This document shows positions 1 to 37,557 of a DNA stretch of 37,557 nucleotides, one piece after another. Numbering within the stretch: the first letter of the stretch is position 1; each line of letters opens with the position of its first letter. The translations under genes and the position numbers were made by a program. The stretch comes from Bacteroidales bacterium (GTDB taxonomy: Bacteria; Bacteroidota; Bacteroidia; Bacteroidales; WCHB1-69), in the NCBI GenBank assembly GCA_031285725.1, contig JAITVP010000056.1, positions 1 to 37,557 of the forward strand, given 5' to 3'. The notes under the pieces are model-generated. The model ran no database searches. It had not been told where the DNA came from and saw only the letters and a program-made list of their open reading frames with translations.

Positions 1-266
1 CCGTAATCGTCATACGAAACGATAATCACACCCTCAGGACAATCAAAATAAGACTCCTCGCCGTTTTCATATTTGTTGAGGAGCGAAGCGGTGATGTGGA
101 AACTGAGCCGGCCGGAATCACTGAAAAAAATCTCAATGTCCTTGGCCGATTCTTCCGGAAATTTTCCGTCATATTCTTTAGGGGAAATGACGGAAAAATC
201 ATCATTGCAAGCCATAAAAAACACCATAACGAGACAAGTCGCTATGGTGTTTTTGTATTTTTTCAT
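1..266 (-). CDS. lptC: LPS export periplasmic protein LptC, N-terminal part (runs off left edge)
   Basis: Not in the ORF track. Manual translation from ATG at 266 gives MKKYKNTIATCLVMVFFMAC-NDD...PEESAKDIEIFFSDSGRLSFHITASLLNKY...YFDCPEGVIIVSYDD. Lipoprotein-like N-terminus and SDSG motif resemble Bacteroidetes LptC; coaX-OMP-TPR-lptC order is typical of Bacteroidetes. Confidence 0.75.
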   Translation of the reverse strand, partial: MKKYKNTIATCLVMVFFMACNDDFSVISPKEYDGKFPEESAKDIEIFFSDSGRLSFHITASLLNKYENGEESYFDCPEGVIIVSYDDY

Positions 267-286
267 ACCATATAAATTATAGTGTA

Positions 287-1726
287 TTAGCGGACGGTTG
301 TGTTTTCTTGTATCCAGCAGCCCACGCGGTAAGAATCGCCGGCTTTCAACGCGCGCATATTCTTATCACCTTCCGATGGGTAGGTCAATCCTGCCAGAGC
401 GGCTCTTGCGTCGCTGGCCACAGAAGAATCCACGGCCATCGCTCTATGGAACTTGTCGGCTGCCGCCCAGCTGGTAGCGTAAGGAAGCGCACCGTCCGTA
501 TTGCATTGTGAAGCAGAATAAGCATACAACTGACCGATCAAAATGTACGCCCGACCGAAATTGGGATTGATTCGCAACGCTTCCTGAGCGGCGCTTCTTG
601 CTCTAGAATATTCATTTTTCAATTGATAGCAAGAGGCCATTAAAAAATAGGCCATCACCTTGCTCTCGTTAGTTTCATACAGGCTAATTGCTTGTTGATA
701 ATAGCCGATCGCCTTGTCGTATTCTTTGGCTTTCAATGAGGAGTTTCCCAGCAGGAACGCACTGAACGCCGCCGGATTTTGCTCATGATAAAGCGACAAT
801 CCCTCCATGAAAACGGGAGAATCCACGCAGCCAGCCTTACTCATCGTTCTGACAATCTTGCCCACTACAGTTATATTGCTCTTGTTTTCAGCTAATTTAA
901 CAGCGTAAACTTTTTCCAATACTGAACACGGTGCATACGGCATGAAAATAAGCTCAATATTGGTCATCGTTTTTTGATAGTTGTCAACCAATTTCATTTG
1001 ACGTGCGGTGTCTTCGCTGGCCAATTTGAATTTTTTTTCGTAATCGACAGCCGAAATCCGGTTCGCTTCCCGCAACGAATCCAACACCGCTAACTCTGCC
1101 AACTGTTTTTCGTATTGTTTGTAAGCGTTTTCGATTGCCAAATCAATGGGTTCGCTGGCGCGTTCATAAGCCTCAATGATGTAGGTGGTATCCTTGTTCA
1201 TCTTCAACATGATTTCCGCTGTCCGCATATAATAATCCAAAATCGTGGGTTGTGATTTTTCCTTTTCCATATCGATGGATTTGACGAACAAGTCGTATGC
1301 TTTGGCATAATCGGTTCTCCGGCGATAGCGCATCAAATTGTAGCCTTGGAATCCAAAGCCGCTACCTTCCGAGAAATTTTCAGGAAAATGGATGTGTCGC
1401 ACTTGGTAAGACCAGAGCAACGAGTCGATCAGTCTCTCTTTTCTTACAGAATCTTCTTCGTCTTTGATCAAATTATCGAACATATTTTGCGAATAGCTAA
1501 ACAGTGCGGACCAAGAACGGGGACAAGCGTTCACCAAATCTTGCCAATATTCGTACGCTTTCTGGTAATCTTTTTGCGTGTAATAGGTTCTGAATCCGTT
1601 GAGATTCTCAATACATTTGATGGAATCCTCCGGATTTGCCCCATATTTGAAAGTGACTGTTTTTTGTGCCTGCAGGGCGGTAATGCTAATTAATAAAACT
1701 GAAATTAATAGACTTACTTTCTTCAT
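287..1726 (-). CDS. Secreted tetratricopeptide-repeat protein
   Basis: Signal peptide MKKVSLLISVLLISITALQA-Q (alternative start 1738); TPR helices (KEYDKAIGYYQQAI, YSRARSAAQEALRINPNFGRAYILIG); C-terminal VGCWIQENTTVR. Confidence 0.85.
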   Translation of the reverse strand: MKKVSLLISVLLISITALQAQKTVTFKYGANPEDSIKCIENLNGFRTYYTQKDYQKAYEYWQDLVNACPRSWSALFSYSQNMFDNLIKDEEDSVRKERLIDSLLWSYQVRHIHFPENFSEGSGFGFQGYNLMRYRRRTDYAKAYDLFVKSIDMEKEKSQPTILDYYMRTAEIMLKMNKDTTYIIEAYERASEPIDLAIENAYKQYEKQLAELAVLDSLREANRISAVDYEKKFKLASEDTARQMKLVDNYQKTMTNIELIFMPYAPCSVLEKVYAVKLAENKSNITVVGKIVRTMSKAGCVDSPVFMEGLSLYHEQNPAAFSAFLLGNSSLKAKEYDKAIGYYQQAISLYETNESKVMAYFLMASCYQLKNEYSRARSAAQEALRINPNFGRAYILIGQLYAYSASQCNTDGALPYATSWAAADKFHRAMAVDSSVASDARAALAGLTYPSEGDKNMRALKAGDSYRVGCWIQENTTVR

Positions 1727-1791
1727 GTTTTTAACCATAACTACATTAATACTTATTTTTCTGGATAATTAACTTTAAAATCCAACTTTTA

Positions 1792-3060
1792 TTATTCCAA
1801 ACGAGTCCGTTGGTACCACTTTTCTTGTAAGATGAAATTGAAGGATATTTTGAGATAATCCTGCAAAATCAGATCGTAGGAAGTGGTTCCCATCCGCCCG
1901 TATTCAAAAACGATGTTGATAGTGGAGTTGGTGTTGAACGTTTGGAGCGGAATCCCGATTCCCAAGGAGATATTATACTCTGATAACACTTTCTCGTTGA
2001 GGGTTAGATAACCGGTGGAGTGCTTGAATCCGGCGCGGTATCTCAACTTCTTGAAAAACTTGGGCGATGCGGGATCTGCGCAGTATTGCAAACCGATAGA
2101 GGTTATCCAATTGTTGGAGAGGGAGTCGCTTTTCCCCATGCTTTCAAATTTCTTCCAATTTTGCCACGTCACATCCGCTCCGATAAGCCAAACATTTTTG
2201 AATGAATAAGATAGACCGGCTCCGATGGATTGTGGCAACTTCATCGTCCCTTTCACAGCTGCCGTACTGACAATGGTGTCCAAGGTATAGGAAGCATCGT
2301 ATTCTCCCGTGTAGTTTCCGATCATCAAGTCTTGCTTCACTCCGATATAGGCGGAATTTTCATATACCAATCCGAAACCCAGCTTGTGATTTTCCTTGAG
2401 CGGGAGGAAATATTGAAGACCTGCGGAGAGGTACAAACCGTCCACTTTGTCGCGTTGATCTATTCTCGTGTTAAAAAAATAATTCTCGTTATATTCGGCA
2501 TAGCGGGTATCGTGGAGCGTGCCCCACAAGTAGGATAGATTCAGCCCGATAGAGAGATTTCTCGTCAGTCGGAAAGCGTTTCCCCAGTACACTTGGTTCA
2601 GTCCGCCATCGCCTTCGTAGCGGTAGCTATAGCCTTCGTGGCCCGTATCATTGATTTTGTAACCTACATCGCTGAACGGCAACACACCGAGACTGGTGCG
2701 CCAGAACTTCGCCACTGAAAATCCAATGGTTAGATAATTGAACCGAGCCAGCGTGTTTTTTTGATTCATATCCGTGTTTTTCAAAGAGATAGAAGATGTT
2801 GAAAACGCAACATCAGCGATAAAAGAGAGCGAATCGAATGCGATGTAAGACGCCGGATTTTTATAGTTTACAAAACGGTTGCTTTGGATGGCATAGGAAG
2901 TTCCACCCATAGCACTGAGCGATGCGTTGGTGGTGTTACTCAAAATACCAATCCCAAAACCCGAGTAAGGTGAACTGATCCCCGTTTGTGCGTTTCCGAT
3001 GATGTGGATTCCCATCAGGATGATTAACGTAACGACCAGGATATTAAATTTTTTCAGCAT
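1792..3060 (-). CDS. Outer-membrane beta-barrel protein, FadL/OmpP1-like
   Basis: Signal peptide; SPYSGFGIG, AMGG and NPAS N-terminal motifs; GxGGLNQVYWG; amphipathic beta strands; lies between coaX and the TPR gene. Confidence 0.75.
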   Translation of the reverse strand: MLKKFNILVVTLIILMGIHIIGNAQTGISSPYSGFGIGILSNTTNASLSAMGGTSYAIQSNRFVNYKNPASYIAFDSLSFIADVAFSTSSISLKNTDMNQKNTLARFNYLTIGFSVAKFWRTSLGVLPFSDVGYKINDTGHEGYSYRYEGDGGLNQVYWGNAFRLTRNLSIGLNLSYLWGTLHDTRYAEYNENYFFNTRIDQRDKVDGLYLSAGLQYFLPLKENHKLGFGLVYENSAYIGVKQDLMIGNYTGEYDASYTLDTIVSTAAVKGTMKLPQSIGAGLSYSFKNVWLIGADVTWQNWKKFESMGKSDSLSNNWITSIGLQYCADPASPKFFKKLRYRAGFKHSTGYLTLNEKVLSEYNISLGIGIPLQTFNTNSTINIVFEYGRMGTTSYDLILQDYLKISFNFILQEKWYQRTRLE

Positions 3061-3775
3061 TTATTTTTAGTATTTCATGTAACCCTTTCAGGATAAAATT
3101 AGAGTCGGCAAATATCACATTTTTCACCGACTTTTGCAAGTACTCCGCATCGCCGCCCGTCAGTACCGTTTTGAGGAGAGGATAATTTTTTTGGTATTGA
3201 TTCATAAATCCTTGTATCTCAAAAACAAGCCCATTGATAACGCCGCTTTTGATAGATTGTTGTGTATCGTTGCCTACATAATAATCAATTTCATTTTTAC
3301 TCACTAACGGTAATTTTCCGGTGTATTGTTTCAGGGCGTTGAAGCGCATCTCCAAGCCCGGTGAAATCGCACCGCCGTGGTAAGCGCCGTGACGGTCAGT
3401 GAAATCATAAACGACACAAGTGCCCGCTTGGATAGACAATACATCCTCATCCGGAAAATAACAGGCGGCGGCCACGGCGTTGGCGATACGATCCAGTCCC
3501 AGCGTATGGGGGGAGGTGTAATTCAACGTGATCGGTAAGCGCAAAGTATGGGAGAACGAAACCGCCAGCGTGTGACTTGCGAGAAATGCCGTCCAATCAG
3601 GCATTATTGCCCGCACCGAAGAGACCATGGACCGTTTGACGGAATATGTTTCGCAAAGCGATTCAATTGTTTTTAATAAAATATCTTCTTGTTTATCAAA
3701 AAAAAACAACGTGCCATCCGGATCGAAAATCCCGATCTTGCACAAGGTGTTGCCGATGTCGATGACTAAATCCAT
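3044..3775 (-). CDS. coaX: Type III pantothenate kinase
   Basis: MDLVIDIGNT, LGLDR, AGT, GGAISPG and TGGD motifs; start moved to ATG at 3775. Confidence 0.95.
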   Translation of the reverse strand: MDLVIDIGNTLCKIGIFDPDGTLFFFDKQEDILLKTIESLCETYSVKRSMVSSVRAIMPDWTAFLASHTLAVSFSHTLRLPITLNYTSPHTLGLDRIANAVAAACYFPDEDVLSIQAGTCVVYDFTDRHGAYHGGAISPGLEMRFNALKQYTGKLPLVSKNEIDYYVGNDTQQSIKSGVINGLVFEIQGFMNQYQKNYPLLKTVLTGGDAEYLQKSVKNVIFADSNFILKGLHEILKINAEKI

Positions 3776-32314: not shown

Positions 32315-33289
32315 ATGAAAAAAACAAGATTATTTTCTCTACTATCTCAAATTACAATGATCATTTTGATCATTCATATAGCCGGATGTAAACCAAAAAC
32401 CACCGAGCCGTTACAAACTGCGACGGAAAAAGTGGACTATCCCGTGAGACCCGTTCCCAATATGATCGCCACTTCCATTGACGATGCGGAAACGCTGTAT
32501 CCTTTAGATGCGGATTTTGTCAAAGATTTCATGGAAAAAGCCCGTGATTACGAAGGTACGCATGTGCAGGCGGAGATTGCGTTTCCCGAAGCATGGGGTT
32601 TGTTGTCGGTCGAGTATTTGCCCGAAGGTCGAGAGTTGTGGCATCTGCAATCGCAATGTCGAGAGTGGATGTATTTGGTGATTACCTCCGGCATGGGCAC
32701 GCAACGGATTCTGGATTTGCTGCCCGTGGCCGTGAACCTCTCCGTGCATCGGGGAGACATTCTCCAAACCGAACTTTGGACCACCTGTCGCGAATCGGAC
32801 GGCGCATTCTTGGTCGAGAAGGCCTATGAATGGTTGCGTTCCATCGAGAATGTATCCAAACAAGATTTGGACACCAACTTCTCTGCTTATCAACATGAAA
32901 ATCACGTAATTGATAAATACTATATCAACGATATGAGCCGCTTTGAATACATTCCCCGAATCGACAGCATTGACTACAGCGCCGTGGTTTTCTACTACAA
33001 CCAAGAGACTAAACCGGACGAGTGGGACGAGGTGATCCCGATCCTGCAATCCTACTGTGAAGAGAAAAATATCTTTTTTGATGAGATCTATTCCGGTTAC
33101 AACAATGTGAAAATCACAGATTTTAGACTCAACGACATTGCTGAATTAGATATCACACCCTACATGGGTGTCACCGAATCCGGCATGGTGATGTTCCGCT
33201 CCGGTCAAGAACCCAAAAACGTCAGTTTCGGCAGCATGGAACGGATGAAGGTTGAGATACGGCGTTTTTTTAATTTATTGAGTCAATAG
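32315..33289 (+). CDS. Hypothetical lipoprotein
   Basis: 324-aa ORF with a hydrophobic signal ending IAG-C; no recognised catalytic motif. Confidence 0.75.
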   Translation: MKKTRLFSLLSQITMIILIIHIAGCKPKTTEPLQTATEKVDYPVRPVPNMIATSIDDAETLYPLDADFVKDFMEKARDYEGTHVQAEIAFPEAWGLLSVEYLPEGRELWHLQSQCREWMYLVITSGMGTQRILDLLPVAVNLSVHRGDILQTELWTTCRESDGAFLVEKAYEWLRSIENVSKQDLDTNFSAYQHENHVIDKYYINDMSRFEYIPRIDSIDYSAVVFYYNQETKPDEWDEVIPILQSYCEEKNIFFDEIYSGYNNVKITDFRLNDIAELDITPYMGVTESGMVMFRSGQEPKNVSFGSMERMKVEIRRFFNLLSQ

Positions 33290-34863: not shown

Positions 34864-37439
34864 TCACCTCACCACCGTCACTTCCCCTTTTACAGTGTGC
34901 CGTTTTCCGAAATGGTCCCGGTAGTGAATGATGTACACGAACATTGCGCCGTTGAGGGTATGCTTCCCGTTGCCGGTGCCGTTCCAGCCGCTGTCGGGGT
35001 TTTCAGTGTAGAAGATTAATGTTCCCCAGCGGTCGTAGATCGACATTTTGAATTCCGTCATATCTATCGTCACAAATTCGGGTTTGAAGAGGTCGTTCAA
35101 ACCATCGCCGTTGGGAGAGAAAGCGCTGGGGACAAAAAACGAGGTTTTGTCTTTGATATCCAAGGTCAAGGTCGTGCTATCTTCGCAGTCATTATCATCT
35201 CTCACATAAAGAGAGACTTCGTATTGCCCAATCTCATCATACCGATGCTCGGGATATTGGGTTGACGAACCGTTACCATCACCAAAATTCCACCGCCAAT
35301 AGGTCGCATTTTGGGAACAATCGACGAAACGCAACATGTCGTTGATGAAATTGGGCGGAGACGGAGATACCGTAATACATGCTTTAATATCCTGTATATT
35401 ATTGATAGTGAACGGGAAATCGATAGGGCATATTCCATCATCTACCGAAATCGTGTAATTTCCCGGCCGGAGATTGAAAGCGGTGCGATCTGTGTAATTT
35501 TCGATACCGTTCCAATAGACATCATAATGATCCGATGAGGTGCTGATGTTGATTTCAATGGAGCCGTTATCTTTATTGCATGTCGCATGCGTGATTTTGA
35601 CAATAGAGACCATGATTGGGTCTGGAATTGTGATTTCCACAATGCCGATTTCCAAGGTGTTACATTGATCGTGTACACTGACGATGACATCCGTCTCCTC
35701 GGTAATGATCGTTCCAACGGCTGGCGTTTGCGAGAAGGTGATCTCGTCGCTGCTCACGCAATTGTCATACGCCGCCGTATCGAACAGTTCCGTAATATCA
35801 GGGATAGAGTATTGTCCGTTTTGGCAAATCGCTTCTGCGGAATAGACAGTCGTTTCAATGGTAGGCGGTTCAATATCTTGTATCAAAATGGTGATCGTGT
35901 CCCGTTTCATGCAGTTATTCGCATCGGTGACTGCCAGATAGACTTCGACGAGGGAGTCACAGAGGTAAGCGGCAGAGATATTGGTCTGGGCGGAGGCAGG
36001 GTCGCCGGCAATAGCTGCGGCGTTACCATTCCACTGGTAAGAATAGGGTGGCGTTCCGCTCGTCACTTGTGCGGCGATGGTATGATTGATCTCGAAATGA
36101 CAAAAAGGATCAGGGAATTGTGTGACCACGGTTTCGACCGACGGATAGATGTGGACATACACACCGACGGCGGAACCGCACCCGTTGGCAGAGCCGACTA
36201 CTTGGAAATAGGTGGACGTGGTGGGTGCCACCAAAATCGTCGAGGTGTCGATCTCTGTGGTGTTCCAACGGTAGGAATCTGCACCGGAAGCCACCAAGCG
36301 GGTGGTGTCGTTGGCGCAAAGCGTGTCGCGGTAAGCGTAAACGCTAACATTGGGAAGGCTGTTTACTACCACGGGAATGGTGGTAACAACCGTGTCGCCA
36401 TCGGCAAGGAAAAGATAGAGTGTGTAATTGCCACTGTCCGCCGGCATGGCATCGTAAATGGTCGGAGCACGTTCCGTGGAAGTGAAACCATTGGGGCCTT
36501 CCCAGTAGACGGTGGATCCACTTTCCGAATTAGCGCAATAGAGGAAAAGAATATCACCCTCGCAAACCGGACTGTTGCTGCCGGCCAAGGAGAGCACGGA
36601 ACAGTCGGTTTCCGCTGTGGTGTAGTTTGTTTCCACGGCATTGAAAGAGATGACACCGGGCACGCTCGCAAAATTTGTAATGAGCAGCAAATAAAATTCC
36701 CCTTCTTGCGCATCGGGAATAAAACACCATTCCGTGCCTGCAGAGTGATAACTACAGTCTATCATATTGTCCACGGGATATCCTCCAAAATTTCCATTGG
36801 CATGGTCTCCGTTAGTAGGTCTATGGGTTGAGGTCGATTCAGTATAAAAATCGTATCTGCCGCAACACAAGTTATTTTTAAAATCGGCAGATGTGCTAGC
36901 GGCAAAAGGTCCCCAGCAGGCAAAATCCACATCCGATTCAGAGCCGTCCGAATCCCGAAATTGTTGCAAATAAATTAGCAGATTTCCGGGTTCGCTAATA
37001 CGCATATAGTACCAAGCGGCAGGTTTATCGATATTGCCCAGACAGCCCACGGAGGATTGTCCGAAAAAAACAGTCGGGTAACCGCCGGTGCCGGAAGGAT
37101 AGCTGATTCCGTCCGGGGTGTCGTCGGTACAGAACGGGTGCAGGCTTACTCCGTCGCAAGGCGATCCCAATGCGGAGGAAACGGTAAAGCAAGGTTTGCA
37201 GCTTAGACCCGCAGCCCACCCGGAACTTACCCCTTCGCCGTTTGACGTGAAAAAGAGGGTGATCACCTGACCGGTGGTTTCTATTCTGGGGGGAAGACTA
37301 TTTCCCATGAACGTACCCAACACCGGAGAGGAGGTCGATGCGCCGTCGTAAACATACAAACAATCATAATCACTCAAAGAAAACTCATAAAATTCCAACA
37401 CTAAGGGTTGGCCATCTTCTGAGATGTAAATTTGCGTCA
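34864..37439 (-). CDS. 3' part (3' exon) of a T9SS type-B CTD surface protein (CUB, Cys-rich, Ig/HYR-like, SprB-like, PKD domains)
   Basis: Partial CUB (LVLEFYEFSL..DCLYVYDG..SP.LG..G..GW.A), DVDFACWGPF block, PKD (WNFGDG..PEHRY..GQYEV.L) and CTD FVPSAFSPNGDGLND..IYDRWG. No signal peptide; the first 27 codons of the track ORF are intron DV/DVI sequence. Confidence 0.85.
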
Positions 37440-37557
37440 ATCGAGTAGGAGGAAAACGAAGTAGTTTGCTTCCTACTTTCGTTTTCCGACCTCTCACACC
37501 ACCGTACGTGCCGTTCGGCATACGGCGGTTCTTTACCTACGATGCAATTTACTGTAA
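37440..37557 (-). mobile_element. Group II intron (class IIC), 3' end: domains V and VI (truncated by window edge)
   Basis: Minus strand: DV (37529-37498) ACCGCCGTA-TGCC-GAAC-GGCA-CG-TACGGTGGT with the IIC CGC triad, GAAC loop and CG bulge. DVI GAGAGG...CCT-A-CTC with bulged A at 37446; intron ends ...CTACTCGAT (AY) at 37440. Confidence 0.93.
37533..37556 (-). CDS. Probable C-terminus of intron-encoded RT/maturase (YSKLHRR-stop)
   Basis: Open frame TAC AGT AAA TTG CAT CGT AGG TAA ends a few nt before DV, where IIC intron-encoded proteins usually stop. Only 7 sense codons are visible. Confidence 0.5.
   Translation of the reverse strand, partial: YSKLHRR

Follow-up and report, generated by a model that had tools for sequence, protein, structure and literature searches.

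A class IIC group II intron in sense inside the gene of a probable type IX-secreted surface protein of a termite-gut Bacteroidales-like genome, with a second copy in lnt

The DNA analyzed here, called the window throughout, is the entire contig C143 (JAITVP010000056.1 of assembly GCA_031285725.1; 37,557 nt) of a Bacteroidales-like genome that was assembled from a termite-gut metagenome (197 contigs, 2.11 Mb, 94.6% complete). At its right end, on the minus strand, the last bases of a group II intron are located, directly followed by a long reading frame for a surface protein whose CUB domain lacks its beginning. The features of this locus are:

37440..37557, minus strand: last 118 nt of a group II (class IIC) intron, with the end of domain IV, domain V (DV, CGC triad), domain VI (DVI) and the 3' end ...CUCGAU (Rfam RF00029 and identity to seven other contig ends)
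37438..37439, minus strand: TG, the last two bases of the intron-split codon, with the T at 37439 as presumed intron-binding site 3 (IBS3) (sequence; T at +1 in other copies)
34864..37437, minus strand: 3' exon, 857 codons and a stop, protein P0001 (translation, Pfam, alignment to the homologue P0003)
37210..37416, minus strand: part of the CUB domain lying in the 3' exon, residues 8-76, equal to profile positions 35-108 of 110 (Pfam PF00431, 33.8 bits)
36019..36081, minus strand: SprB repeat, residues 453-473 (Pfam PF13573, 29.6 bits)
35164..35343, minus strand: PKD domain, residues 699-758 (PF18911 (PKD_4), 50.3 bits; PF00801, 33.7 bits)
34885..35133, minus strand: CHU_C type IX secretion C-terminal sorting domain, residues 769-851 (Pfam PF13585, 59.9 bits)

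The intron end was recognized by RF00029, the Rfam model for DV and DVI of group II introns, which matched with its full length (model positions 1-77) at 37440..37530 on the minus strand and reached 45.4 bits at a gathering cut-off of 40 bits (E = 6.1e-6 when the entire window was scanned, 9.1e-8 when only its final 558 bases were). A chance match can be dismissed because the same 3' end recurs at eight contig ends of the genome. Seven of these exceed the cut-off, and the eighth, which is shorter, is 98.8-100% identical to the rest over its 80 nt. In the alignment to the Rfam consensus, CGC stands in place of the AGC triad, and the upper helix of DV is shortened. The intron ends at 37440 with ...CCUACUCGAU, and its terminal ...CGAU gives a G at position -3 and an AU boundary; an A located 7 nt from the 3' end was read by eye as the candidate bulge of DVI. 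The other contig-end copies share 98.8-99.2% identity with the window copy, and all end in ...CUCGAU followed by T, while the window copy carries one private base change. The contig stops inside the repeat, 27 nt upstream of DV, which leaves the intron body outside the window. The repeat overlap of about 119 nt at the contig ends resembles the k-mer limit of an assembler, and assembly evidently merged the copies of the intron body into one unbinned contig.

Directly after the intron follow TG (37439-37438) and ACG CAA ATT TAC, encoding T-Q-I-Y. From 37437 to 34867, the frame is free of stops over 857 codons, and the stop codon lies at 34864-34866. According to Pfam, the first quarter of the CUB domain is absent from P0001. 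The closest homologue, P0003 (991 aa, with the whole CUB domain at residues 216-311), aligns from its residue 237, and about 236 residues are therefore absent upstream of P0001. An earlier reading of this DNA from its letters alone (hereafter the sequence-only reading) had placed the end of DV/DVI at 37440, followed by TG and the T-Q-I-Y codons, and had described a missing CUB start with an intact remainder; the boundary proved exact to the base, and the CUB match from profile position 35 of 110 and the 857 open codons bear out the rest. In a public collection, the same gene is represented by the 845-aa protein P0002 (34864-37401), which begins at an internal start (M-LEFYEF...). Because such a product would be without a signal peptide, this start is an artefact of the split gene. 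Within the 3' exon, about 29 nt past the junction, a small hairpin followed by AATTTTA is located at 37395-37411 on the minus strand. It was rejected as a terminator-like signal, as the terminator scan of the window end yielded 6 sites compared to 3.7 +/- 1.8 in shuffled sequences.

The corresponding 5' exon was found on a separate, unbinned contig of 1103 nt. Its protein, P0122 (243 aa), was the best of two matches to the N-terminus of P0003 among 499 short candidates (E 8e-58). P0122 comprises a hydrophobic, signal-peptide-like start, an N-terminal domain and the first 20 residues of the CUB domain, and it ends in ...DPGGDDDYGTDLF-GSPSMGIF (...YGTDLF + GSPSMGIF). The final GSPSMGIF-stop is the translation of a G and the first 26 bases of the intron. 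P0122 and P0001 divide the CUB profile between them in Pfam, and the two exons meet without gap or overlap, because Y230 of P0122 aligns with Y230 of P0003 and T1 of P0001 with T237 of P0003. Measured against P0003, the last full codon of the 5' exon is 235 and the 3' exon takes up at residue 237, with the split codon (G|TG for Val, where P0003 has Ile) at 236 in between. The codon GTG for Val would be formed by the exon-final G, taken from the tail of P0122, and the TG of the window. A 5' exon with a signal peptide that ends 1 nt into a codon had been predicted, and P0122, with its signal-like start, its phase 1 junction and its continuation into the intron's 5' end, answers this description. 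The core of the sequence-only reading thereby stands as well: a class IIC intron lies in sense and in phase 1 within the CUB domain of a surface-protein coding sequence, and the whole protein needs splicing. The homology and the common intron end suggest that the P0122 contig is physically linked to C143. The stem-loop that precedes the intron at other sites (see below) probably exists in the surface-protein gene as well; the end of the P0122 exon, Leu-Phe and G, can be written as a T-run followed by G.

With the N-termini of four homologues as queries, no convincing upstream piece was detected in the contigs of the genome itself. Contig C144 was tried as the missing upstream part and rejected as a paralogue, with only 29% identity to P0122 over 58 residues and a different architecture. 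It encodes a 931-aa frame (bases 1-2793, minus strand) that has its own signal peptide and runs off the contig end, and the domain at its end is paralogous to the one at the N-terminus of the CUB proteins. Further paralogues of this domain were found on C43 and C150.

These three paralogues are what could be cited for regulated or alternative splicing, by which the intron would gate the surface protein or join alternative 5' exons to it, and the surface-layer case of Clostridium tetani shows that this can happen (PMC4024640). The paralogues are 29-34% identical to P0122, though, and none of them adjoins an intron end, while one 5' exon fits exactly. Moreover, the same intron stands behind ordinary terminators at 9 of 11 junctions in this genome. 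We thus regard such splicing as very improbable. Both a splicing-gated switch and exon shuffling via the intron had been offered as options in the sequence-only reading; no support was found for either.

An artefact of metagenome assembly or binning was considered, either as a chimera at the repeat or as a combination of exons from two strains. The contig ends in the repeat of about 119 nt, which is likely a k-mer overlap, the exon depth is low (7.6), and the 5' exon lies outside the bin. Against this, an independent 795-nt contig from a second assembly of the termite gut metagenome run, the only run with this stretch among the contigs searched, spans 36900-37466 and crosses the exon-intron junction with 0 differences. 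The 3' exon starts with T, as at all other copies, a chimera would not by accident produce exons that fit together in frame and to the exact residue, and a second gene, lnt, shows the same architecture (see below). An artefact is hardly credible. Evidence for an intron-less allele was sought at two levels. Among the contigs of the single run, neither a joint nor a loose end pointing to such an allele was found, which is uninformative since contigs drop rare variants; among the 532 homologous proteins, none represents such an allele, with 64% identity in the best match other than the protein itself. An orthologous empty site for the CUB gene was not shown either, with best matches of 50-52% identity in 40 related genomes.

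The intron's 5' end, GTTCG (GTTCGCCCAGC...), occurs at 11 contig ends of the genome, with the common repeat GTTCGCCCAGCATGGG..., and the two of these ends that were scanned reached 143 and 145 bits with Rfam RF02001 (group II D1-D4). All 11 of the 5' junctions lie behind a hairpin and a T-run, and the exon before them closes with G in eight cases, A in two and T in one. At 9 of the 11 junctions, the intron is preceded at a distance of 55-75 nt by the end of a sense frame with at least 90 codons, and between the two lie the hairpin and the T-run; two ordinary terminator hairpins of this kind fold at -19.1 and -18.4 kcal/mol. On the other side, the 3' exon opens with T in all eight copies and in 69 of 73 related copies from other genomes. 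Further conserved exon sequence was not seen by eye, and the loop GCUAAACA holds a candidate UAAA, a putative exon-binding site (EBS). Long open sense frames start from the 3' junction in only two of the eight flanks, namely C143 with 857 codons and C75 with 521 codons, whereas the others do not exceed 95 codons. Four of the remaining six flanks are the ends of convergent genes or a transfer RNA (tRNA) gene (SbcC-like, class V aminotransferase, tRNA-Leu, solute-binding protein), and two are without a recognized gene. A divergent copy with 96% identity occupies bases 1-300 of contig C7 (locus L026/L036), and this contig then ends in nine T; as this copy differs from the others, the assembler was able to extend 300 nt into it. 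Domains of a reverse transcriptase (RVT) or maturase (GIIM) were not found in the 197 contigs, which fits an unbinned repeat contig and is no proof of absence.

Full elements were recovered from other genomes, where the 5' and 3' ends are joined within single elements (L046, L068 and L110). In a genome of the same family (G008), the element L046 measures 1461 nt; its 5' part is 83% identical, and 8 differences were counted over the 118 intron bases of the 3' end. Only a remnant of the maturase is left in it, and it lies directly after a gene stop, a hairpin and TTTTTTTTG. Full-length relatives of about 1.9 kb are represented by L068, L110 and L082. L110 is 80% identical over the 285 nt of the 5' end and encodes an intron protein of 469 aa with RVT_1 and GIIM only. 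Compared to solved structures, this protein scored 398 bits with the reverse transcriptase (RT) of GsI-IIC and 392 bits with 7uim, another IIC reverse transcriptase, but 160 bits with LtrA. Short relatives of about 0.6-0.7 kb, with both ends and little or no protein gene, were observed as well (L074 from Phocaeicola coprocola DSM 17136, and L118).

The identification of the element as a multi-copy class C (IIC) group II intron is supported by the hairpin and T-run at 11 of 11 junctions, the T at +1 in 8 of 8 copies, the CGC triad with G at -3, and the class C protein of the relative, which is nearest to the GsI-IIC RT. The triad is given as 'CGC for some introns' (PMC4424553), and a G at -3 is found in the vast majority of IIC introns (PMC4748821). 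The class IIC assignment of the sequence-only reading is therefore retained; it had also expected a GTGCG 5' end, and in this respect the third base of GUGYG differs at all 11 contig ends. It had further called for a survey of what follows the other DV/DVI copies, which is given by the eight flanks above, with only C143 and C75 entering long sense frames.

A core of 39 bases of DV was found unchanged at no fewer than 119 places in species-representative genomes of several phyla, very often at contig ends. The hosts include Bacteroidales, Clostridia, Kiritimatiellia, Lentisphaeria, Akkermansia, Streptococcus and others. Judged by these matches, the IIC lineage with this DV core is very widespread and highly conserved in gut genomes. 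From this collection, 80 loci were fetched (L047-L126), 73 of which have a recognizable 3' end. At least 150 open sense codons follow the junction in only three of the 73 (271, 203 and 150 codons). No clear case of a cut gene or domain was found among these 73 copies, and the helix-turn-helix (HTH) domain in one of the long frames starts whole at residue 36.

The second long frame in the source genome belongs to lnt, the gene of apolipoprotein N-acyltransferase Lnt, which is split by another copy of the intron, likewise in sense and in phase 1. Its halves (loci L021 and L003) are:

C38, left end, junction at base 107: lnt 5' exon, ATG...MKIVFCLLSGLLLWLSWPPVGVAIF and G into the intron
C75, right end, junction at base 3518: lnt 3' exon, TT and FVAFVPLFILSDK..., 521 codons

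The 3' exon on C75 has no start and matches the lnt family TIGR00546 with 211.8 bits (cut-off 132.9), and the joined C38 and C75 N-terminus is collinear, residue for residue, with the lnt of relatives. In all seven relatives examined, lnt is uninterrupted, single and collinear, so an empty site is shown for this gene in contrast to the CUB gene. The exon pair of lnt also connects the 5' and the 3' intron ends of the source genome with each other. The codons for LWLSWPPVGVA form a 14-bp hairpin of -22.3 kcal/mol (z -3.2), whose end is separated from the splice site by 5 nt, with UUUUG (TTTTTG in the coding DNA) behind it. The same stretch folds at -5.8 to -18.5 kcal/mol in the relatives. A 200-aa lnt query gave a single match in the assembled genome, with no second lnt among its contigs, while lnt is present in 10 of the 12 related genomes searched. 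Since no other match was found and the one lnt carries the intron, splicing probably works in vivo, although this evidence is suggestive only.

Taken together, we consider it likely that a class IIC intron inserted in sense into a type IX-secreted CUB/SprB/PKD gene at a look-alike of its target, and that the insertion is recent and tolerated. Ordinary retrotransposition of the intron into single-stranded DNA that resembles its target would account for both genes. According to the cited papers, IIC targets consist of an IBS1 of 3-4 bp, a one-base IBS3 and a stem-loop that also aids exon ligation (PMC1702495, PMC4424553), and the splice sites of the intron B.h.I1 lie 3-11 nt past the stem-loop (PMC1702495). 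In the surface-protein gene, the site splits the Val codon after its first base, some 20 residues past the CUB start, and would have been hit by its likeness to this normal target, with a stem-loop, then UUUUG, and a U as first base of the 3' exon. Both exons are intact, with 235 codons and a G on the unbinned contig and TG and 857 codons in the window. Translation of unspliced RNA would end 8 codons inside the intron and yield a 243-aa fragment without the secretion domain, and the full protein of 1093 aa would require accurate splicing. Because both insertions are in sense and the frame is exactly restored, splicing can rebuild both messages, and we infer that it takes place in vivo. The insertion in the surface-protein gene is most likely a recent and tolerated one that lowers expression, and not a designed switch.

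Several points weigh against this interpretation. P0122 lies on another contig and could come from a sister strain. The 197 contigs yielded no reverse transcriptase of the intron, and an active maturase may therefore be lacking. The copies are 98.8-100% alike, and the intact exons could merely mean a very recent insertion. Furthermore, lnt is not essential in all bacteria. In vitro, introns of the IIC class are poor splicers that act mostly through hydrolysis (PMC4748821, PMC7161350), and an IIC intron lowered the host mRNA in an Escherichia coli reporter (PMC6003770).

The main rival is a knockout, in which the insertion is real, splicing is absent or too rare, and the surface-protein gene is a pseudogene too young for its exons to have decayed. 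The near-identity of the copies indicates a recent spread, adhesin-like surface genes are many and variable (see the 532 homologues and the best match of 64% identity above), few exons are ligated by IIC introns in vitro (PMC4748821), and the bin yielded no reverse transcriptase/maturase gene. The knockout is nevertheless unlikely in our judgment, because the same intron interrupts lnt, the only match to that query and a gene kept by most of the related genomes searched. Both exons of both genes are without stops or frameshifts, and the sense orientation with an exact restoration of the frame is what splicing needs. None of the three outcomes named in the sequence-only reading (knockout, switch, shuffling) was shown; the knockout stays as main rival, and the copy in lnt argues for splicing.

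Beyond a recent and tolerated insertion, a stronger version can be formulated, in which the IIC introns of this lineage, against the usual view of such introns as silent residents behind terminators that splice badly, would be efficient in vivo splicers that sit in expressed genes, with lnt as a conserved one, and would act as a splicing-dependent throttle on the surface protein. As they would be transcribed together with their host genes, the gene-resident copies could be active 'master' copies behind the burst to 11 or more. We regard this version as rather doubtful, albeit possible. If it were true, the amount of the secreted adhesin-like protein would depend on the maturase of the intron.

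For comparison with known systems, the closest are class C introns such as B.h.I1 of Bacillus halodurans and GsI-IIC of Geobacillus stearothermophilus, which resemble the present intron in their target of stem-loop and T-run and have a short IBS1 and a one-base IBS3, as presumed here as well (PMC1702495, PMC4748821, PMC4424553). They also share the CGC triad, the G at -3, a protein with RT and maturase only (known here from the relative) and the occurrence of many near-identical copies. Unlike in these two introns, two copies lie here in sense inside look-alike sites of protein-coding sequence, the 5' end is GUUCG instead of GUGYG, and the host is Bacteroidales-like and not a Firmicute. The element is thus known in kind, as class C, and what is unusual is the location of two of its copies inside genes. 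In surveys and reviews, class C introns count as harmless, given their landing sites behind terminators, and are described to avoid or not to break coding sequences (PMC7306698, PMC8919778), and bacterial introns are seldom found in housekeeping genes (PMC4424553, PMC6003770). Here, a target of stem-loop, U-run and a single 3' base would have arisen by chance within two genes, whose exons are intact and in frame.

Splicing that fuses the reading frames of surface proteins, as would be the case here, was reported for the C. tetani intron (PMC4024640). There, several upstream frames are joined via a shifted 5' splice site, whereas in the present gene a single 5' exon fits exactly at the normal splice site, with no alternative products known. 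Ll.LtrB in the relaxase gene ltrB and the introns in cyanobacterial housekeeping genes are further cases in which expression hinges on splicing and host expression is lowered (PMC6003770, PMC4424553). Those introns belong to IIA, IIB or CL/ML and home to long specific sites, while the IIC intron described here relies on structure and about 4-5 bases. A IIC lineage at a stem-loop other than a terminator is also known from the IIC-attC introns of integrons (PMC4424553, PMC3001079); in contrast to these, the stem-loop in lnt, and probably that in the surface-protein gene, derives from coding sequence and not from an attC site, and no integron context was seen. In the literature searched, we found no conserved coding sequence reported to house a IIC intron, and priority is not claimed.

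If splicing is confirmed, the two genes would provide natural evidence that a IIC intron splices accurately and efficiently enough in vivo for a conserved gene, as well as natural coding exon contexts for the study of IIC splicing. They also give a warning with respect to annotation: metagenome-assembled genomes are interrupted at repeats of this type, where gene calling then produces truncated proteins whose starts are invented, as for the 845-aa P0002. Many further repeats break the assembly of the source genome, in which about 30 clusters of contig ends were observed. Among them are a family of nine members ending in ...TATAGCAATTGAACTT... and families of six and seven members with transposase-like ends, and C20, C27, C114 and C75 carry unlike repeats at their two ends. 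Elsewhere in the window, on the plus strand at 32315-33289, a frame of 324 aa that matches no Pfam family is located between the gene of DXP synthase and a saccharopine dehydrogenase-like gene.

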